From assembly GCA_965205015.1 (NCBI GenBank), contig OZ242029.1:5536001-5600000 (forward strand): DNA of 64,000 nt, given 5' to 3'. The position numbers and the translations under genes are program-made. This document shows, piece by piece, positions 2,122 through 15,843 of the stretch (position 1 is the first letter of the stretch; each line of letters starts with the position of its first letter). The notes under the pieces are model-generated. The model worked only from the letters and a program-made list of their open reading frames with translations. It did no database searches and had not been told where the DNA came from. The DNA is from Candidatus Poribacteria bacterium (lineage in GTDB: Bacteria; Poribacteria; WGA-4E; WGA-3G).

Positions 2122-2934
2122 CTACATGGCATCAACTAAGGTGCGCAGTTGCTGCACACCCTTCAACATATCCTCTGGTTGCCCCCAATGTTCAATGCTT
2201 GCTGCACCCGTGAATCCATCAGCGACAAGCGTTTCCAATAACTGTTTATAGTGCAGTCCTGTGTCGCCAATCGGATCCAGGTTTTTCTCACTGTTGGGTT
2301 TCACATGGACGTGCCGCACCAGTCCCTTAATATGGGAGTACCCATCCGGCAAGGGATTTTCTCCACAGTGTAGTCCGTTATTGACATCCCAGCACGAGGT
2401 GAGAGCGGGACTATTGCCGAGCGCCGTGATGACGGCACGGGTCTCCTCACAGGTTCCGGCGAGACAGGCACTTTCGTTTTCAAAGCACAGCGTAACGTTC
2501 CCGCTCTCTGCAACCGGAACGACAAGAGAGAGTTTCTCGACAATGCGTTCCATATAGTCGTTAATATCCGGGCGCGGTGCCCCTTTCGTTCGACGATTTG
2601 GGTTCCAAAACGTAAATCCTCGAATGACTTGGGTATCAAATGCGTGTGCCAATGTCACCATCCGGTCAAAGTGTCGTCGATGCTGCTCATACTCCTCCGA
2701 ATCGTCAATGGCGCATTTACCGAAGGGGGATCCGACACTCGCAACACGTACGTTATAAGTGCTGAGTACATCCTGAATACGTTTGACATCGTCATCATCA
2801 ATCTCGGTCACGTGTTTTCCCCAAACACCGCCGCGGATTTCGACGGTATTTGCGCCGGCTTCAACACCGAGTTTAATGGCTTCCTCGAAATCGGTTTTAG
2901 AAACCTCGTCCGCAAAATAGCAAACATCAATCAT
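2122..2934 (-). CDS. Sugar phosphate isomerase/epimerase (xylose isomerase-like TIM barrel)
   Basis: FENE, WDVNN, HVHVK, SIEH metal-binding motifs. Confidence 0.85.
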   Translation of the reverse strand: MIDVCYFADEVSKTDFEEAIKLGVEAGANTVEIRGGVWGKHVTEIDDDDVKRIQDVLSTYNVRVASVGSPFGKCAIDDSEEYEQHRRHFDRMVTLAHAFDTQVIRGFTFWNPNRRTKGAPRPDINDYMERIVEKLSLVVPVAESGNVTLCFENESACLAGTCEETRAVITALGNSPALTSCWDVNNGLHCGENPLPDGYSHIKGLVRHVHVKPNSEKNLDPIGDTGLHYKQLLETLVADGFTGAASIEHWGQPEDMLKGVQQLRTLVDAM

Positions 2935-2950
2935 TTTATAAAGATTCCTC

Positions 2951-3580
2951 CTAAAATTTCTTTAATTGTGCCAGTATTGGCTCAGCACCGATACGTTTAC
3001 CATTCTTGACATCAAGGTATTTCCACGCGATGTTACCATCCTGATTAACAATATAGGTCGTTGGACGTGCCACCTCGACCTCACTCGGATCAACCACATT
3101 ATAAGCCTCAATCGTCTTCGTGTTTTCATCCGAGAGCAAGAGATAGGTGATTTGAAGCATCTGCTGCGTTGAATTAGCATCCGCTATAGGATCGGAACTG
3201 ATAGCGATAAGTTCGGCACCTTCGGCTTGAATCTCTTCATAACCTTCCTGCAACTCACCGAGTTGCGTTCGACAGTCGCCTCATGTGCCGGTCCGGTAGA
3301 AAACAATAACGAGTTTCTGCCCGCGATACTCCGAAAGCGTATGGAATTCCCCATCACCATCTGGAAGTGAGAAGTCGGGTGCGAGTGCTCCGAGGTCCAA
3401 CCCTTCGCCCATTGGGAGTTTTTTCGCTGCGTCCTCTGGGGCTGTTACAACGTGGGTCGCCCGTTCTGCGTTGTCACAAGCGAGGCATAAGAAAATAATC
3501 ACAGTACACAGAACTGAGAAACCCGCTAAAGTCGCCTTCCTCGAAAATGGCGATCTCAGTTTTATAATCCAATTGTCCAT
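2951..3580 (-). CDS. AhpC/TSA (peroxiredoxin-like) redoxin lipoprotein, putative selenoprotein (UGA at 3281-3283, UxxC)
   Basis: ORFs 3281..3595 and 2951..3253 are in one frame; readthrough gives APDFSLPD...LVIVFYRTGT-U-GDCRTQLGELQEGYEEIQAEGAELIAISSD...RPTTYIVNQDGNI; ATG at 3580 overlaps the sulfatase stop (ATGA); hydrophobic leader ending CLAC. Confidence 0.88.
3250..3266 (-). promoter_or_regulatory. Putative bacterial SECIS hairpin
   Basis: GCAACTC-GGT-GAGTTGC perfect 7-bp stem; loop starts 21 nt after the in-frame UGA. Confidence 0.7.
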
Positions 3581-4911
3581 CAGTTTCGATTGCATGTTTC
3601 AGGTCTCCCTTCATCGGCTTGTGCGTGCATCCAGTGCCGGACATCGGCGCGCATCTCTTCAAGAATTGGACGCATTTCCGCACTGAACGCCAAATTGTTG
3701 AACTCATACGGATCCGTCGTCACATCATATAATTCCTCTACCGGGTGATGCTGCGTGAGATAAACGAGTTCTGCCGTTTGCGGATCGGTCTCGGCTTTCT
3801 CTACCCAACTGTTCCACACCTCGGCGTGGCTTTCTGGAATGCCTGCAACCTCAGTGAAGTGGGTTGTCCATCTGTTTTCGGGCATCAGGTTCAAGATGTA
3901 TTTATAGCGGGTAGTGCGAACACAGCGCTGTGGGAATACATTCATATCTCCGTCGCGGGTATGCGTGCCATAGATTTTATCGCGGAAAGTCGTTTGTCGT
4001 CCGAGCAGGACATTCTTAAAACTGCTGCCGTCCAAACCGTCCAAGGGTTCACCACCAGCGATCTCTATAAGCGTCGGAAAGAAATCAACGTGTGAAACCA
4101 TCGCGTCCGAGACAGTGTCGGCTGGGATCTCGCCGCGCCATTTGGCGAGAAAGGGTAGACGGATACCGGTGTCATATAAAGTCCATTTGCAGTGGGGCCA
4201 CTCGGCACCGTGATCGGTCGTGTAGATGAAGAGTGTATTGTCGGCATATCCGTGTGTCTCTAACATTTTATTTACTGCGCCGATGCGGGCATCCATTGTT
4301 GTGATGTCTTGATAGTAATTGGCAAGCGCATTTCGAGCGATGGGCGTATCAGCGATATAGGGCGGTAGCGGCAAAGTGTCTGGATTATAAATTTTGTTCG
4401 GTTCCCATGTGACATGCGGATTGCTATCACCGAGGATGAGACAGATGGGTTGATCCGGATTCTCCCGTCGATGGCTTGAAAGAAAACGTTCAACCGGGGC
4501 GGTATCAAGTCCTTCTGCCCGATACTTCCGATCATGCTCGGCACGCTTTGGCAGGAAACCCCCGATATACTCAAAATCGAAGAGAGGCTCCGGTTTCACA
4601 TGCGTTTTACCGGCGATCGCCACGCGATAACCGAGCTCTCGAAGTGTCCGTGGTAAGGCTTTAAGATGAGCGTGGCACTCCGTATGATTGCCCATTGCAC
4701 CGTGTCGAGCTGGATATAACCCCGTATACAGGGTGGAACGAGACGGCGCACATGTCGGTGTCGGTGTGAAAGCGTGTGTAAAACGGACTCCTTCCTCGGC
4801 GAGACGATCTAAATGTGGCGTTTGGATCTGGGCATTTCCGTAACAACCGAGGTATTCCCAGCCGTGATCATCGGACAGGTAGACAACGATATTTGGCTTC
4901 TTTGATGGCAT
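3580..4911 (-). CDS. Cys-type (formylglycine) sulfatase
   Basis: PNIVVYLSDD, CAPSR signature, GKTH, DHG, ELYD..DPYE..NLA. Confidence 0.93.
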   Translation of the reverse strand: MPSKKPNIVVYLSDDHGWEYLGCYGNAQIQTPHLDRLAEEGVRFTHAFTPTPTCAPSRSTLYTGLYPARHGAMGNHTECHAHLKALPRTLRELGYRVAIAGKTHVKPEPLFDFEYIGGFLPKRAEHDRKYRAEGLDTAPVERFLSSHRRENPDQPICLILGDSNPHVTWEPNKIYNPDTLPLPPYIADTPIARNALANYYQDITTMDARIGAVNKMLETHGYADNTLFIYTTDHGAEWPHCKWTLYDTGIRLPFLAKWRGEIPADTVSDAMVSHVDFFPTLIEIAGGEPLDGLDGSSFKNVLLGRQTTFRDKIYGTHTRDGDMNVFPQRCVRTTRYKYILNLMPENRWTTHFTEVAGIPESHAEVWNSWVEKAETDPQTAELVYLTQHHPVEELYDVTTDPYEFNNLAFSAEMRPILEEMRADVRHWMHAQADEGRPETCNRN

Positions 4912-4915
4912 TATG

Positions 4916-5773
4916 TTAGTCGTCCTTAGCAGATGGAAACGGTTTCGGTTTTTCAGGATCTTCGATTTTCATCTCGACGGTTTCCGGTGGAAATTGTGTG
5001 CAGACCGCGCCGTCTTTCATTACCCATCGGAAATTGTGCCAGAAGCGTTTGCTTGTCTTGACGATTTCTGGATTCGTATAGACACCTGCGATAGCAATAC
5101 GGCTCTTTTCACTCTTGTTCGGCGGACTATAGTGCCACATACTACTGTGCCAAATGACGGCATCCCCGGTACCCAATTCAATATGGTGTATGCCCCGCTT
5201 TTCGATCATCTCATGAACGGCTTCCCTTGGCAATTCACCGTGTATGCTATCGGGATACAAGACGTGTTCAACAATCTCGGTTTTGTGGCTGCCAGGAATG
5301 AATTGCATGCACCCATTCTCTCGCGTCGCAGGTTCAAGCGGTATCCAGAAGTTGAAAGGCTCCGTTTCACCGTCCCGCCAGAGTCCGTTGTCTTGGTGCC
5401 ACGGCGTTGCAGCACCAGTGCGTGCTGGTTTGAGGAAGCAGCTATTGAACTTCATGATGATATCGTCGCCGAGGAAATAGCGTGCAATATTGAGAACTGT
5501 CGGCGCAGCATGCACGTTGTGCCATATCAGCGGCGATTCGACACAGAAGTTAGCGAGTTTTCGAAAGCGTGCGATGCGCCCTTGTGGTGAGTCGTCCATC
5601 GGATCCATAGGATCGTAATCGGCGAACTCGCCGGCGTTGGGCAGCATAAGGACGTTACGAATGACGCCGCGGAGTTGTGCTGCTAAATCTTCTGAGATAA
5701 TATTACGAAGGATAAAGTAGCCTTCGGTCTCGTATTGCGTTTTTTGTTCGACGGTTGGTTGCCATCGCTTCAT
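4916..5773 (-). CDS. Phytanoyl-CoA dioxygenase (PhyH) family Fe(II)/2OG dioxygenase
   Basis: WHQD, ENGCM..PGSH and distal H(YS) motifs; start placed at MKRW behind a GGGAGAAGGA RBS. Confidence 0.9.
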   Translation of the reverse strand: MKRWQPTVEQKTQYETEGYFILRNIISEDLAAQLRGVIRNVLMLPNAGEFADYDPMDPMDDSPQGRIARFRKLANFCVESPLIWHNVHAAPTVLNIARYFLGDDIIMKFNSCFLKPARTGAATPWHQDNGLWRDGETEPFNFWIPLEPATRENGCMQFIPGSHKTEIVEHVLYPDSIHGELPREAVHEMIEKRGIHHIELGTGDAVIWHSSMWHYSPPNKSEKSRIAIAGVYTNPEIVKTSKRFWHNFRWVMKDGAVCTQFPPETVEMKIEDPEKPKPFPSAKDD

Positions 5774-5863
5774 TGGAATGTTCCTTCTCCCGTTGTTGAC
5801 CGGTGGACGTGTGATGAATCGCACGACTACAAACCTACTCTCAAGCTCAAAGTGGACAAAACA

Positions 5864-6454
5864 CTACGCAAAGAGGTCTTGAACCTGACATTGAAACCCT
5901 TCGACAACGTCCCCGCCATCAAGGATGTCAGTTCCACGTAAAACGGTAAAATCCTCGTTGGAGCGATACACCTCCACTGTTTCCCGTCGTGGATTGATGA
6001 CCCATACCATTGCACAACCCGCAGTTAACCACTCTTCCACCTTTTCAGCAACCTCGGCGTAGGTATCGCCAGGGGAGATGACTTCAACAGCCAAATCCGG
6101 AGCCCCCTCCCAATAACCCTTGACGATACCTTGACCTTCAACCGAGGCTTGTCGAACAAAAGCGGCATCTGGTGCGCGCACTGTATCAGGATTTTGGGCA
6201 ATCTTAAAACCTGTTTCGGCACCGCAAACATATCCTAATTGATGTGCTCTCACATGCACGTTAAGTTTGCTTCCAATTTCAGCAGCGCAGATGCCATGCT
6301 CAAATCCAGCAGGTGGCATTTTTTGCAGTACTCCTTTCACGAGCTCATAGCGAGTGCCATCATCGGGCTGCTTGGCGAGATCATCAGCCGTTAAAAGATT
6401 GTGTTGCGCAGCTGGCAATGTAGGTTTGGGTTGATTCATCCGCGGGTCTGCCAC
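5864..6454 (-). CDS. Uma2 (DUF820) family PD-(D/E)xK endonuclease-like protein
   Basis: RYELVKG, H, RAPD, PDLAVEVISP motifs; GTG start after AAGGAGG. Confidence 0.88.
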   Translation of the reverse strand: MADPRMNQPKPTLPAAQHNLLTADDLAKQPDDGTRYELVKGVLQKMPPAGFEHGICAAEIGSKLNVHVRAHQLGYVCGAETGFKIAQNPDTVRAPDAAFVRQASVEGQGIVKGYWEGAPDLAVEVISPGDTYAEVAEKVEEWLTAGCAMVWVINPRRETVEVYRSNEDFTVLRGTDILDGGDVVEGFQCQVQDLFA

Positions 6455-6532
6455 GATGCCCTCCTTAAGAGAATATTTAACAATCTTTGGCTTCTTATAT
6501 GATAACACTTGCAAGCACATCTATCAACTGCC

Positions 6533-7279
6533 TCAGCGACTCTTGAGGCGTCCCCAAGTGGTCGTGAGCAGACCGTTTGGAGAGACGGGTAGGACGGCTT
6601 CCACGCCTTTCATCAACTCAGCAATTTCTGCCTCCGTGATACCGCGGTCAAAGAAGATGACCTCGTCCAATCTACCGATAAACTTCTCACCGCCGAAGGT
6701 GCCAAACAGCAGTTCACCTGCCTGGTCTACATCACCGCCCTGTTTGACGGCAGATTCAAGCGCGCCGTCTACATAAAGTTTCATCTCACTGCCGTCGTAA
6801 AGTCCAACGATGTGATACCATTTTTCGGGGTCGATGACGGATGTTCCCCAGACACCGCCGGTAAATCCACCGCCCGACCAGATGCCAAAGACATAGCCGC
6901 CCGGTACTCGTTCAGTCGCTGATTGGACCTCCAATAGATAAGAACCGTTTCGTCGAATAGCGGTATCGGAAACGCCTTTATTCATATAGACCCACGTTGC
7001 GATAGTCATCTGGTCCTTGAAATTGATGCTATCGGAAGGTTCAACAGTCACAACATGCGGTGGTTCAAATTCCAACGCACCGCCGAATTTACCTTCTGCC
7101 CACTTCGCACCAGTGATTGCACCGTCGTTCCCGTTGCCCGAGGTATCCGCTGCAGTATTGCCGTTCCCTTCATCAAAAAGCCAGATGCCGACTGCATCGT
7201 CCAGCAGCTCAGCCGAAAGTTGACTTGTTGCCATACACAACAAGCCTCCAATGATCACAAACCAAAATATTCGTTTCAT
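6533..7279 (-). CDS. Secreted LamG domain protein with C-terminal TTW tail
   Basis: Signal peptide; WLFDEG.G..A.D.SGNG, GKFGGALEF, WYHI, GRLDEV; ends VSPNGLLTTTWGRLKSR. Confidence 0.88.
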   Translation of the reverse strand: MKRIFWFVIIGGLLCMATSQLSAELLDDAVGIWLFDEGNGNTAADTSGNGNDGAITGAKWAEGKFGGALEFEPPHVVTVEPSDSINFKDQMTIATWVYMNKGVSDTAIRRNGSYLLEVQSATERVPGGYVFGIWSGGGFTGGVWGTSVIDPEKWYHIVGLYDGSEMKLYVDGALESAVKQGGDVDQAGELLFGTFGGEKFIGRLDEVIFFDRGITEAEIAELMKGVEAVLPVSPNGLLTTTWGRLKSR

Positions 7280-7378
7280 TTTCTTTCCCCCTGATATACG
7301 AGTTTAGCAGAAAGGGGAAAATGTGTCAAGGGATAGCGATCACCTGAATCAGGATTTTAGGATTGGTAGGACAAACTC

Positions 7379-7422
7379 GTCTGAATCGCGGATTGCACAG
7401 ATGAAGCAGATGACGCGGATTT
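7379..7422. repeat. Dispersed intergenic repeat (GTCTGAATCGCGGA...GACGCGGATTT)
   Basis: The same two blocks recur at 44898-44923 with a shorter spacer. Confidence 0.6.
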
Positions 7423-7535
7423 AAGTATTTTTTATTCAATACCTATTCTTCCATAGAGGCAACATGATTTTCGGTTGAATTATTTAGGAAAGCGTGATAA
7501 ATTGAAAGAAACAGTATTGCTATGCGAATTGAAAA

Positions 7536-8276
7536 ATGCTAACGCAAGAAATGGTAGCCGATGTCCCTTCGGATCCGGGTGTTTATTTTTTTCGCGGGGC
7601 TTCGGGGAAAATCCTTTACATCGGCAAGGCGAAATGTCTACGAAAACGCGTCCGCTCCTATCTCCATAAGGTCAAAAGACGTCCAAACAAAATCAAACGG
7701 CTCATCCGGTGGACAACAGATGTCCGGTATCAGGTCTGTCGTTCGGAACAGGAAGCACTCTTCTTAGAATCGCGGCTCATCCAAGAGTATCAACCTTCCT
7801 ATAACACCGCGCTGAAGTTTGGACGGACCTCTTGGTATATTCGGATAGATATCGGAGAGGCTTTTCCGCGCCTTGAAAGAGTCCCCGAAACACAGCCAGA
7901 TGGTGCGAGATATTTCGGTCCGTTGTCGAGTCGGCGATGGACAGATGAAGCCATTGACGTTTTACAGCGGATCTTTCCGGTGCGGACCTGCGAAGGTGAG
8001 ATTACACCGATACCGGGATTTCGTGCCTGTTTTCAGTATCACCTAAAACGCTGCGATGCGCCTTGTGCTGCACGCATCACGCGTGAGCTTTATGGAGAAA
8101 TGATAACGGATATCGTCAATTTGCTGGATGGGGAGTATGAAGCAGTACAAACAAGTCTGGTCTCGAAACGAGATGGAGCATCAGAGACACTGCAATTTGA
8201 GCGGGCTGCTGCGTTTCAAAAGCAGTTGCAGCGGATTCAGAAGGTCTTTACGTTTTTAGATGTCCACCGGAGGTAG
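7536..8276 (+). CDS. GIY-YIG nuclease similar to the UvrC N-terminal half (Cho-like), with Cys cluster and UVR motif
   Basis: PGVYFF..ILYIGKAK.LRKRVRSY, EALFLE..LI...P.YN, C..C.....C.APC, FERAA; lacks the UvrC RNase H and HhH domains. Confidence 0.85.
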   Translation: MLTQEMVADVPSDPGVYFFRGASGKILYIGKAKCLRKRVRSYLHKVKRRPNKIKRLIRWTTDVRYQVCRSEQEALFLESRLIQEYQPSYNTALKFGRTSWYIRIDIGEAFPRLERVPETQPDGARYFGPLSSRRWTDEAIDVLQRIFPVRTCEGEITPIPGFRACFQYHLKRCDAPCAARITRELYGEMITDIVNLLDGEYEAVQTSLVSKRDGASETLQFERAAAFQKQLQRIQKVFTFLDVHRR

Positions 8277-8333
8277 ATTTTGGGGTATTTGGTGTGCAAT
8301 TTGGACGGATTTGTATTAATTTGAAAAAAAATC

Positions 8334-8362
8334 TTGCCTAAAAAATTAATACGTGTTAGAAT
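8334..8362 (+). promoter_or_regulatory. Sigma70-type promoter of the first HMA gene
   Basis: TTGCCT-17 bp-TAGAAT, followed by an AAGGAGG RBS before ATG 8393. Confidence 0.55.
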
Positions 8363-8392
8363 AACGAATAAGTAATTCAAGGAGGTTAACCC

Positions 8393-8779
8393 ATGCATAT
8401 CGCAAGATTATCGCTTATTTGTCTTATTGCTTTCGTATTCATGGTAGGCTGTGGTCTGATTGGGAAAGAAGCAGAGATGCCTGAAACCACCACAGCTGCT
8501 ATGGACGGTGCTGAAATGAAATCCGACATGAAGACGGATGGCGACATGATGGAAGCCGCCGTTGAAGAAGTTACACTGAACGTTACAGGGATGACGTGAG
8601 GCGCGTGTACCAGCAAGGTGCAGGATGCACTCAGTAAAGTCGTCGGGGTTTCTGAAGTGGTCAGTGTTTCTTCAACGGATAACACGGCTGTTGTGAAGGT
8701 TGAGAAAGGTAAAGTTAAGTCTGCCGATCTCACGACAGCAGTTCAAGGTGCCGGCTTCAGTGCCGAAGTCGCTCAATAA
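8393..8779 (+). CDS. HMA-domain (CopZ/MerP-like) lipoprotein 1, putative selenoprotein (UGA 8597-8599, GMT-U-GAC)
   Basis: Lipobox MVGC; readthrough gives VTLNVTGMT-U-GACTSKVQDALSKVVGVSEVVSVS...AVVKVEKGKV..ADLTTAVQGAGFSAEV, ending TAA at 8777-8779; a complete HMA fold with GMTCxxC. Confidence 0.92.
8617..8631 (+). promoter_or_regulatory. Putative SECIS hairpin of HMA gene 1
   Basis: GGTGCA-GGA-TGCACT; loop 23 nt after UGA. Confidence 0.7.
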
Positions 8780-8793
8780 GGCTGAATCGGAGG

Positions 8794-8820
8794 GGGTGGG
8801 GTGACCCACCCTTTCTTTCT
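8794..8820 (+). terminator. Intrinsic terminator after HMA gene 1
   Basis: GGGTGGG-GTGA-CCCACCC then TTTCTTTCT, 15 nt after the readthrough stop codon. Confidence 0.65.
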
Positions 8821-8900
8821 ATAGGAACAGGTTGCAAACCACAACTCTCTTGCAGCCTTAATTCAAATAAAGTTTCAACCATCAGCGTTGAAGTTGAAGA

Positions 8901-8926
8901 GGCGCGATCGAGAGATCGTCCCTACA
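8901..8926 (-). repeat. GTAG-type REP-like palindrome
   Basis: Minus strand GTAGGGACGATC-TCTC-GATCGCGCC; similar to 17126-17149. Confidence 0.6.
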
Positions 8927-8944
8927 CATAAGGGGATTAAACTT

Positions 8945-9289
8945 ATGCGTCAGTTAAACGTGAGCCTGCTATTCGTTTGCTTGGCAGCACTGCTGTTTGT
9001 GTTCGCGTGCGCAGACACAGCAAAGAAAGAGGCAGAAGAGGCAGCACCCGCGCAAACAGCAGCACCAGCCATTGAAGAAGTAACGCTGGCTGTGACCGGT
9101 ATGACATGAGGCGCGTGTACCAGCAAAGTGCAGGATGCACTCACAAAGCTTACCGGTGTGACTGAGGTCGTCAGTGTTTCTATGGAAGAAAATAAGGCTG
9201 TGGTGAAAATTGAGAAGGACAAGGTTGAGAAAGACGCGCTCGTGAAAGCGGTTACAGACGTAGGTTTCAGCGCGCAAGTCGCTAACTAA
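8945..9289 (+). CDS. HMA-domain lipoprotein 2, putative selenoprotein (UGA 9107-9109, GMT-U-GAC)
   Basis: AAGGGG RBS, lipobox VFAC; readthrough gives VTLAVTGMT-U-GACTSKVQDALTKLTGVTEVVSVSMEENKAVVKIEKDKV..DALVKAVTDVGFSAQVAN, ending TAA at 9287-9289. Confidence 0.92.
9127..9141 (+). promoter_or_regulatory. Putative SECIS hairpin of HMA gene 2
   Basis: AGTGCA-GGA-TGCACT perfect 6-bp stem; loop 23 nt after UGA. Confidence 0.7.
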
Positions 9290-9324
9290 TTTTAATTTTA
9301 CCTTAGCTTAAAACCCTATTAGAG

Positions 9325-9357
9325 AAAAAAAATGCGAGGTTGTACCTCGCATTTTTT
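9325..9357. terminator. Bidirectional intrinsic terminator
   Basis: A-tract ATGCGAGG-TTGTA-CCTCGCAT T-tract between convergent genes. Confidence 0.8.
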
Positions 9358-9387
9358 GTTTTCTCCAGAAATTATCCGATGTCTCAA

Positions 9388-10251
9388 CTACTGTCCCTTA
9401 TTCGCATAAAGCGGATCATCCAGCAGGGACTGCACCTCGTAGATGGAGCCTTTCAACTCTGCGTAGGGTTCCGGCATACGCACAGGTGCAGCGACCATCC
9501 GTGGCTGATTCGTCGGCTCGCCACGGATAATCGTGTCGTTGAAAGTCTCCCAATCCGGAATGCCCTTCAGGGGCCACGCATCTACAGCACAGTATTGGGC
9601 AAGCATCAAGCGGCGCGGTTTGTCTGAGGTATTCGGGGCAGAGCCGTGCAGTGCCCGAACGTGATGGATCGTGATACCACCCGCCTTCAACTCAACAGGT
9701 TCAGCACCTTCCGGTGTGAAATCGGGGTCAGTAACCGCACCGATAAAAGCACCGTCCTGGTGATGGTCTAACGTCGGTCCCTTGTGGGAACCGGGAAGTA
9801 TCATCAACGCCCCGTTCTCTACAGTCATATCGTCAATCACGACCCCGACTGCAAGCAGATCGTCGTTGGTGTGCGGATAGAACGCCCAGTCCTGATGCCA
9901 TTCAACCGGACTTCCGAACTCCGGATACTTCATGTTCAATTTATGTCCATTATACCGAACCCCCGGTCCGATGAGTTGCTCCACAATATCCAAAATATTG
10001 GGGTGCCGTAAGGCGTAATCGTAAACGACGTGGTGTAGCCCCGGATTCTTGATACGCCGCACGCGCGGGTTCGCCGGCGTATGCCCCGGTTCCAAGTCGA
10101 AGATGTCGGTATGTTCGGTGACTTCTCTCGATTTTTCGACGAATTCATCGGTGACGCGTTGGAGATCGGCGACCTCTTCTGCTGTCAACACCGCTTCAAC
10201 GCCGAGGTAACCCTTCTCGTCGTAAAAATCACGTTGTTCTTGTGTGAGCAT
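9388..10251 (-). CDS. PhyH family dioxygenase
   Basis: KLNMK, WHQD, ENGAL..LPGSH, HGSAPN. Confidence 0.92.
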   Translation of the reverse strand: MLTQEQRDFYDEKGYLGVEAVLTAEEVADLQRVTDEFVEKSREVTEHTDIFDLEPGHTPANPRVRRIKNPGLHHVVYDYALRHPNILDIVEQLIGPGVRYNGHKLNMKYPEFGSPVEWHQDWAFYPHTNDDLLAVGVVIDDMTVENGALMILPGSHKGPTLDHHQDGAFIGAVTDPDFTPEGAEPVELKAGGITIHHVRALHGSAPNTSDKPRRLMLAQYCAVDAWPLKGIPDWETFNDTIIRGEPTNQPRMVAAPVRMPEPYAELKGSIYEVQSLLDDPLYANKGQ

Positions 10252-15264: not shown

Positions 15265-15843
15265 TTATGAGGCGTTGAACATGACGCGTCTGTAGATGGC
15301 ACGCAAGGGCAGCGTGCATTCAATTGAAGCAAGTGGTAGCATATCTTCAAGATGTTCAAAGGTATTGTGGATCCATTGGGAACCTTGGCGACGGTAGTGT
15401 TCAACACGCACGTTGTTCTGTGAAACGAGGATATATTCTTGCAAAGATGCGATCTGCTTATAATGTTCAAATTTTTCACCGCGGTCAAACGCTGCGGTTG
15501 AGGGAGACAGCACTTCTATGACAAGCATCGGATTGAGGAGCGTATCAAAGGTGTTATCCTCAAAACGGGGTTCACCACAAACAACAATAACATCCGGATA
15601 GAAGTAGGATATCTCCGGGCTCGTCCGCACACGCATCTCGCTGGCGAAGACTTCACACTCACTATTCATTAATTGGTTGCCCAGTTGGATTGTTATGTCT
15701 ACCGTAATGCGGTTATGCGAGCGACTTGCCCCAGACATCGCGATTATCTGTCCATTGTAGTATTCGTTTTTAAAGGGCTGCTTGCGTTCCCAAGCGAGGT
15801 ATTCCTCGGAAGTTAGATGTGTTTGTGCAGTAAGTGTTGACAT
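15265..15843 (-). CDS. Uma2 family endonuclease-like protein
   Basis: Close paralog of 11488..12063; YPDVIV, IEVLSPST. Confidence 0.9.
   Translation of the reverse strand: MSTLTAQTHLTSEEYLAWERKQPFKNEYYNGQIIAMSGASRSHNRITVDITIQLGNQLMNSECEVFASEMRVRTSPEISYFYPDVIVVCGEPRFEDNTFDTLLNPMLVIEVLSPSTAAFDRGEKFEHYKQIASLQEYILVSQNNVRVEHYRRQGSQWIHNTFEHLEDMLPLASIECTLPLRAIYRRVMFNAS

Follow-up and report, generated by a model that had tools for sequence, protein, structure and literature searches.

Three genes with in-frame UGA codons

The stretch of Candidatus Poribacteria DNA analysed here (64,000 nucleotides of contig OZ242029.1, hereafter the window) contains three genes that have a UGA codon in frame: two tandem paralogs coding for small heavy-metal-associated (HMA) domain proteins, HMA-1 and HMA-2, and, on the opposite strand, a gene for a peroxiredoxin-like (Prx-like) protein of the AhpC/TSA type (Table 1). 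All three are very probably selenoprotein genes in which UGA is read as selenocysteine (Sec, or U in protein sequences). We consider it highly likely that each carries, within its coding region, an ordinary bacterial selenocysteine insertion sequence (SECIS), namely a stem of 5–7 bp capped by a G[G/U]N triloop whose first G lies 24–26 nt downstream of the U of UGA. What standard gene callers cut at a stop would, on this well-supported reading, be intact selenoprotein genes.

When TGA is read as U the frames of all three genes are open, that of HMA-1 from its ATG to a TAA. HMA-1 shows a lipobox (VGC) when read by eye, and homologues of HMA-2 with 93–94% identity span its residues 1–114. Both HMA proteins score above the gathering cut-off of the Pfam model HMA (PF00403; 36.5 bits for HMA-1 and 43.4 bits for HMA-2, cut-off 24.8), as the Prx-like protein does for AhpC-TSA (PF00578; 108.5 bits, cut-off 26). 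The source is a bacterium of the sponge-symbiont type, and the 30 best loci matching the HMA-2 protein (42–94% identity) belong nearly all to Candidatus Poribacteria. Across the 150 genomes of this phylum that were sampled, 143 contain a match to the HMA protein and 141 to the Prx protein. A single in-frame TGA stands at the same Cys position in 142 of the 150 HMA matches listed, and one TGA is found in all 150 Prx matches listed. The codon equivalent to the HMA UGA is TGT or TGC in 9 distinct Poribacteria sites and in 63 distinct sites over all 76 loci found with HMA-2; these constitute the Cys-type sets used below. Within the window TGA is also an ordinary stop, ending 13 of the 58 long open reading frames (ORFs). 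Only one of these 13 has a long open frame beyond its TGA, and it was rejected as a further selenoprotein candidate since what follows is just another gene that happens to share its frame.

The machinery for selenocysteine insertion was searched in five related genomes, whose HMA-2 homologues have 79–95% protein identity, and selA, selB, selC and selD were all found above cut-offs in the five. They comprise tRNA-Sec (75–78 bits, cut-off 47), selB adjoining the tRNA-Sec gene (346–353 bits, cut-off 242), selA (594–601 bits) and selD (359–363 bits), the last with one in-frame TGA.

Table 1. Positions within the window of the three genes, of their in-frame UGA codons and of the RNA structures that follow them.
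Feature	Position	Strand	Description
HMA-1 gene	8393..8779	+	128 amino acids, U69, metal site GMT-U-GAC; small exported lipoprotein-like heavy-metal-associated domain protein
HMA-1 in-frame UGA	8597..8599	+	In place of the first metal-binding Cys in GMTCxxC; aligns with TGT/TGC in Cys-type repeats and homologues
HMA-1 SECIS hairpin	8617..8631	+	Six pairs, base pair G-U, triloop GGA 8623–8625
HMA-1 competing long fold	8597..8633	+	Starts at UGA, uses the 5' arm of the SECIS
HMA-2 gene, tandem paralog	8945..9289	+	114 amino acids, U55, metal site GMT-U-GAC
HMA-2 in-frame UGA	9107..9109	+	Codon of U55
HMA-2 SECIS hairpin	9127..9141	+	Six pairs, base pair A-U, triloop GGA 9133–9135
HMA-2 competing long fold	9107..9143	+	Starts at UGA, uses the 5' arm of the SECIS
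Prx-like (AhpC/TSA) gene	2951..3595	-	214 amino acids, U105, active-site motif T-U-G-D-C-R, N-terminal hydrophobic segment
Prx-like in-frame UGA	3281..3283	-	First position of the UxxC motif in the AhpC/TSA domain
Prx-like SECIS hairpin	3250..3266	-	Seven pairs, triloop GGU 3257–3259

Anatomy of the hairpins

The original prediction, made from the letters of the window, had described a stem of 6–7 bp with a GGA or GGU loop starting 21–23 nt after the UGA of each gene, a UGA context common to the three and a near-identity of the two HMA paralogs downstream of the UGA; these observations are confirmed. Counting the U of UGA as 1, the HMA helix pairs offsets 21–26 with 30–35 around a loop at 27–29, and the Prx helix pairs offsets 18–24 with 28–34 around a loop at 25–27. 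The stem thus starts 17 nt after the UGA in the HMA genes and 14 nt after it in the Prx gene, the loop 23 and 21 nt after it, respectively. From the TGA onwards the two HMA paralogs are identical at 36 of 37 nt, and the lone change (AAG to AAA) turns a G-U into an A-U pair at the stem base. The codons upstream of the TGA mostly differ at synonymous sites, as had been noticed: codons for a shared amino acid are identical in only 3 of 9 cases there and in 13 of 27 further downstream, against 10 of 11 at codons +1 to +11 (Fisher p = 0.013, upstream and downstream regions pooled).

To count such hairpins we used a strict descriptor, consisting of a triloop beginning with G, a stem of at least 6 bp (in a variant, at least 5 bp) and a loop at offset 22–30. 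It is found after 14 of the 2416 TGA triplets of the window (about 0.5%), or after 30 (about 1.2%) with the shorter stem. Among the 14, the three sites studied here are the only ones with long open frames on both sides, none of the 11 others having them. A hairpin equally common after true stops would have spoken against the prediction. It was seen after none of the 84 distinct TGAs terminating ORFs of 150 amino acids or more in the window and the Poribacteria loci (0/13 for the window alone). When the peptides of the window were randomly recoded with synonymous codons, at the codon usage of the window, the strict hairpin arose in 3.2–3.5% of the trials for the HMA genes and in 7–15% for the Prx gene. 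Rfam gave no match at the three sites, and its 5 weak matches in the region 2800–9500 (E up to 10) belong to unrelated families.

The geometry of these elements is that of known bacterial SECIS. The bacterial consensus (the bSECISearch model, as restated in PMC13188914) has a loop of 3–9 nt, a stem of 4–16 bp, a G within the first two loop positions, mostly as N1-G[G|U]N-N2 with N1 and N2 paired, a distance of 16–37 nt between UGA and loop, and an energy of −7.5 kcal/mol or lower. Located in the coding region directly 3' of UGA, with GGA or GGU loops, stems of 6–7 bp and spacings of 23 and 21 nt, the window elements fit this geometry fully. They stand at its minimal end, with no conserved lower stem found. 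Since they match a published, general bacterial consensus, the proposal that they define a compact lineage-specific SECIS does not hold. The SECIS of Escherichia coli fdhF, which SelB binds, has a bulged U and consists of a helix in two parts, about 40 nt in all, of which the upper 17 nt suffice at 11 nt from the UGA. The window elements resemble it in relying on SelB-dependent decoding of UGA through an adjacent 3' hairpin and on recognition of G/U in the loop, but they conserve just 15–17 nt, with a triloop cap and no evident bulge.

Conservation of the hairpin in HMA genes

As the strict descriptor was defined after the three window sites had been seen, independent support must come from homologous loci in other genomes. 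We aligned 76 distinct Sec-type HMA sites, taken from the window, from Poribacteria-type loci, from further fetched regions and from a third HMA-type site found through a covariance model. In this alignment 455 of the 456 cells of the helix are paired. The pair at the stem base is A-U in 42 sequences and G-U in 33. Two of the six pairs have changed on both sides: one is G-C instead of A-U in 2 sequences, and the other, usually G-C, is A-U in 1 sequence and G-U in 2 others. These observed values were reached by only 0–1 of 500 shuffles, and control helices slid along the alignment pair in 8–52% of their cells. The first loop nucleotide is G in all 76 sites, the loop itself varying between GGA, GGC, GGG and GUC. 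The codons that bear the stem are devoid of synonymous variation: over 53 distinct HMA sequences the entropy is 0 at +7 to +10 (GTG 53/53, CAG 51/51, GAT 43/43, GCA 53/53), compared with about 0.6–2.0 bits in the flanking codons of both the HMA and the Prx genes.

The helix follows the UGA. All six pairs are kept in 75 of the 76 Sec-type sites and in none of the 9 distinct Cys-type Poribacteria sites, a difference for which the Fisher p of 2e-11 overstates the independence of what are related sequences. Four of these 9 Cys-type sites even encode the same K-V-Q-D-A-L peptide, with the stem broken by one synonymous change (GTG to GTT, GTG to GTA or GAT to GAC). In some genomes the two states occur within a single protein, as multi-repeat HMA proteins with four or five repeats retain the helix in their Sec repeats and lack it in their Cys repeats. 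The loss of the hairpin through single synonymous changes in Cys repeats with the same peptide makes these proteins a source of clean comparative evidence for a SECIS. Over all 76 loci, 47 of the 50 TGA sites retrieved with a regular expression have the strict shape, against 1 of the 63 Cys-type sites, and the 3 misses are chance matches of the expression outside HMA genes. The invariant stem codons, the compensatory pairs and the loss of the helix in Cys-type sites bear out the RNA-level constraint that had been proposed from the two paralogs of the window.

Several of the loci examined depart from the arrangement seen in the window. Two of them (L023:2959–4155 and L024:2674–3894, both on the + strand), and also L156–L159, encode, where the window has its small HMA pair, one exported protein of about 400 amino acids with five HMA repeats. 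It mixes Sec repeats (U-G-A-C or U-G-G-C) with Cys repeats (C-D-A-C or C-E-A-C), each Sec repeat with a hairpin of its own, and up to four in-frame UGAs occur in one such locus (L159). A Cys-type homologue from a deep-sea genome (L030:3181, + strand) has lost only one of the six stem pairs and still has a loop beginning with G, which could be a fossil SECIS left by a change from Sec to Cys, or else a pre-adapted sequence. One HMA-2 homologue without the stop (genome G099; locus L153, G099:C167:8800–9500) was considered as a conversion to Cys and ruled out. It is 95% identical to HMA-2 elsewhere and lost the UGA together with the metal-binding loop in an in-frame deletion (…TLAV-KVQDAL…), which may point to decay of this copy or to an error of assembly.

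Conservation of the hairpin in Prx genes

The Prx helix was examined in 33 distinct homologous sequences, including paralogs at about 46% protein identity that have W-U-P-F-C instead of T-U-G-D-C. Over these, 98.3% of the cells are paired, and the only variation among the pairs is a switch between A-U and G-U in 6 of the 33 sequences; the support for this helix consists of its invariance and of that switch. In the set of 36 Prx sequences used for synonymous-codon entropy, the value is 0 at +7, +9 and +10 (CTC, GAG and TTG, each 36/36), and the loop and flanking codons vary. The loop starts with G in the 36 sites, with GGU, GGG, GGA, GGC and GUU as variants. The hairpin is the minimum-energy fold of its segment, at −9.2 kcal/mol, with a pair probability of 0.78.

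The G-U pairs, present in 33 of 76 sequences at the base of the HMA stem and in 6 of 33 at one pair of the Prx stem, lead us to read both helices as sense-strand RNA and not as palindromes in the DNA. In sequence the two hairpins show no homology: they are borne by codons for V-Q-D-A-L in the HMA genes and for Q-L-G-E-L in the Prx gene, and each passes down along with the protein family to which it belongs. They would be alike because both meet the same requirement of SelB.

Weight of the evidence and competing explanations

A number of observations weigh against the SECIS reading and have to be set beside those that carry it. The post hoc definition of the strict descriptor, already mentioned, is one of them. 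The sequences compared are related and not independent, so that the p-values indicate at most how strong the evidence could be, and the three HMA cells with double changes probably represent two events. The Prx helix shows no two-sided pair change in its 33 sequences, and shuffles equal the observed values. A looser descriptor, closer to the consensus, was rejected as a discriminator between Sec and Cys sites, since it finds 49 of the 50 TGA sites and also 37 of the 63 Cys sites. The machinery for selenocysteine insertion is shown in relatives only. Lastly, the thermodynamic figures are modest. Among the 40–54-nt segments, those of Prx (z-scores −0.88 and −0.68) and the 54-nt segment of HMA-2 (0.16) have unremarkable energies. 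The isolated HMA hairpin, at −6.2 kcal/mol (−7.0 for HMA-1 with two flanking pairs), falls short of the consensus limit of −7.5 (PMC13188914), which the Prx hairpin passes at −9.2. In a 40-nt HMA segment the small helix has a pair probability of 0.0 (ViennaRNA), because a longer fold, of −18.2 kcal/mol in HMA-1 and −13.8 in HMA-2, wins.

The mechanism proposed here involves the ribosome. With the UGA in the A site, the mRNA channel of the ribosome would hold roughly the first dozen downstream nucleotides, and the next free segment would fold into the small hairpin. SelB, loaded with Sec-tRNA(Sec), would then bind the loop through its C-terminal domain and deliver selenocysteine, in competition with release factor 2. 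Leaving offsets 1–12 out of the calculation makes the small hairpin the minimum-energy fold of each of the three genes.

One could take this further and regard the HMA SECIS as an unusually weak element that is displaced before translation by a fold pairing with the UGA and exposed once the ribosome melts about 12 nt. Insertion of selenocysteine would then be gated kinetically by the ribosome, and the SelB of this lineage would accept elements below the usual threshold. We consider this elaboration speculative and rather unlikely.

An alternative is that the working element of the HMA genes is the long fold itself, the small hairpin being a by-product. In this fold the UGA region and offsets 28–37 form a lower helix, which encloses an inner hairpin with an AGCAA loop at offsets 16–20. 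It is the minimum-energy structure in both HMA genes, dominates the ensemble and has z-scores of −3.3 and −2.2 in 40-nt segments. Lower codon variation at +2 to +4 (GCG, TGT, ACC) hints at some constraint on the spacer, and in the fdhF element of E. coli the UGA also lies in the lower helix. Comparison across genomes nevertheless speaks against it. Over the 76 sequences 89.6% of its cells are paired, a value matched by 216 of 500 shuffles. Of the 76, 36 cannot form the innermost pair and 23 lack another, and the fold shows fewer pairs with two-sided changes than shuffles do. Both compensatory changes, as well as the G/A switch, maintain the small hairpin rather than the long fold. The loop of the latter begins 12 nt after the UGA, outside the 16–37 nt of the consensus (PMC13188914). 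The fold would, moreover, melt with the UGA in the ribosomal A site, and the Prx gene is without any comparable structure. Given this lack of comparative support, and the prevalence of the small fold after removal of 12 nt, we take the small hairpin as the SelB site; that the long fold is the functional element appears improbable, and we keep it as a minor rival or as a possible conformer adopted before translation.

Two further explanations dispense with a SECIS altogether. The near-identity of the HMA paralogs after the TGA might result from recent gene conversion between tandem copies, or from a palindrome acting at the DNA level, for instance as a protein-binding site. The 15-nt spacer between UGA and stem, which lies outside the helix, is indeed also identical between the two window paralogs, and the stems are inverted repeats in the DNA. 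Yet this spacer differs between the HMA paralogs of other genomes, and the frequent G-U pairs would be mismatches in DNA or in the antisense strand. The stem, moreover, stays constant amid variable synonymous sites across 76 distinct sequences drawn from many genomes, and the complete helix is present in nearly all Sec sites and in no Cys site of the Poribacteria set. We regard both explanations as very improbable. Least credible of all is that the TGAs are true stops in split or decaying genes, or are read independently of a SECIS with the hairpins incidental: gene callers would indeed split the three genes, but a single in-frame TGA recurs at the same catalytic or metal-binding Cys position among the HMA and Prx matches listed, the frames are open on both sides of it with conserved protein sequence, and relatives have the complete Sec machinery.

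The UGA context and the scope of the hairpin shape

The original prediction is only partly supported, since beyond the SECIS itself it had drawn wider conclusions that are not. It had treated the shared context AC(A/G)-TGA-GGC-G(CG/AC)-TGT as part of the signal. The motif ACRTGAGGCGNNTGT does occur exactly at the three sites (8594–8608 and 9104–9118 on the + strand, 3272–3286 on the − strand), and with up to one mismatch it has 4 matches in the window where 0.19 are expected, a number reached in none of 100 shuffles. At the fourth of these, with its TGA at 15282, the frame is open for only 1 codon upstream and the hairpin is absent. Codons −1 and +1, however, each use all four synonyms in the HMA sequences: Thr at −1 is ACA in 37 of the 53, ACG in 12, ACC in 3 and ACT in 1, and Gly at +1 is GGC in 31, GGT in 11, GGG in 4 and GGA in 4. 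The Prx paralogs have a TGG-UGA-CCN context followed by the same hairpin. Because the Thr and Gly codons vary freely and the Prx paralogs differ, the shared ACR-UGA-GGC-G..-TGT reflects the peptide T-U-G-x-C and is no RNA signal.

The prediction had also proposed a covariance model of the element. We built one from 45 HMA sequences only; a joint model of HMA and Prx (38 segments) was abandoned when MAFFT placed them out of structural register, with the HMA stem opposite nucleotides that lie 3' of the Prx stem. The HMA model recovers both HMA sites of the window (77.1 and 75.9 bits, the next best match scoring 10.2 bits) but not the Prx site, which is absent from its 12 window matches (E up to 10, filters off). 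In each of the five related genomes it finds three sites, the tandem pair and one further site, all of HMA type where examined. The third site was seen in two loci, L151 (− strand) and L152 (+ strand), with the TGA at strand position 1507. It belongs to the C-terminal HMA domain (GMT-U-GAC) of a protein of about 550 amino acids, with about 490 residues before the UGA and an upstream part that is repeat-rich by eye. As the hairpin found there on a long protein is the same, it travels with the HMA domain.

Other selenoprotein genes of the related genomes have candidate hairpins of other shapes, as judged from the best candidates in 3–5 close relatives per family. The strict shape occurs in 0 of 3 SelD genes (stem of about 4–5 bp, CGGGU-type loop), 0 of 3 AhpD-like genes (7 bp, 6-nt CGGGAA loop), 0 of 5 Rdx-like genes (4 bp, a bulge and 5 bp, GUU triloop) and 0 of 8 tandem Prx-like genes (loops of 6–11 nt), and in the one further Prx paralog (1/1). 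Among the loci concerned, L120–L122, L128–L132 and L138–L140 encode SelD, a Rdx/SelW-like protein (C-T-A-U) and an AhpD-like CMD protein (C-H-Y-U), with one in-frame UGA each. L123, L125, L126 and L127 contain adjacent pairs of Prx-like genes (GG-U-T-T-E-L-C and G-U-T-A-x-V-C), each gene with an in-frame UGA and a hairpin with a larger loop (CGUGAU-type).

In 400,627 bases of Poribacteria loci, a sample biased by the choice of loci for their HMA and Prx genes, the strict shape with a stem of at least 5 bp follows 350 of 14,492 TGAs. When 40 open codons are demanded on both sides, 100 sites are left, 96 of them in HMA or Prx genes and 4 others. The shape alone is thus neither sensitive nor specific, and together with frame continuity it becomes specific, but for the HMA and Prx families only. 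The hope that the hairpin would give access to the whole selenoproteome is therefore not sustained: the shape misses SelD, AhpD-like, Rdx-like and tandem Prx-like genes, it follows about one TGA in a hundred by chance (0.5–1.2% of those in the window), and the HMA model misses the Prx site. Any listing of the selenoproteins of this lineage needs frame continuity and Cys homology in addition, as existing methods already require.

Relation to known selenoproteins

Selenoproteins akin to those of the window have been recorded before. A Sec-containing “Mercuric transport protein MerP” appears, with 2 sequences, in the GOS list (PMC2398784), and Prx-like thiol:disulfide oxidoreductase selenoproteins (PF00578, UxxC) are tabulated in PMC13188914. 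Sec MerP-like and Prx-like UxxC proteins are already known selenoprotein families. The HMA proteins of the window share with the former the HMA fold with Sec in the metal-binding motif, but their motif is UxxC (U-G-A-C) and not UxxU, and they are encoded by tandem lipoprotein-like genes without mer or cop neighbours. Their scores stay below the cut-offs of the NCBIfam model UxxU_metal_bind (NF041115; 47.7 and 63.5 bits, cut-off 95) and of the MerP model (45.6 and 47.7 bits, cut-off 92.55), and they have weak sub-threshold matches to MerT_CopZ_Se (NCBIfam NF045683). The Prx-like protein shares the AhpC/TSA fold and the Sec in first position of UxxC with the family tabulated in PMC13188914, and has in addition an N-terminal hydrophobic segment. 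Its motif T-U-G-D-C-R resembles the TUGYCR of NCBIfam redoxin_TUGYCR (NF053656), for which it scores 21.1 bits, below the cut-off of 100. In the literature searched for Poribacteria together with selenoproteins, the phylum is merely named among the sources of [NiFeSe] hydrogenases (PMC13582414); supplementary tables lay outside that search and may include the present families.

Genomic surroundings

The neighbouring genes code for a sulfatase, a GIY-YIG protein, a PhyH dioxygenase and others, and no mer or cop operon was seen among the neighbours of the window genes. A promoter-like site precedes HMA-1 (8334–8362), and terminator-like hairpins follow HMA-1 (8798–8812) and HMA-2 (9327–9357, 14 pairs). 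Given this promoter-like site and a terminator-like hairpin after each gene, the two HMA genes may be separate transcription units. On the opposite strand, the sulfatase gene (3562–4911) lies upstream of the Prx-like gene and stops at a TGA (3580–3582) within the first codons of the latter, which starts at 3595. With an overlap of about 16 nt, the two genes may share a transcript.

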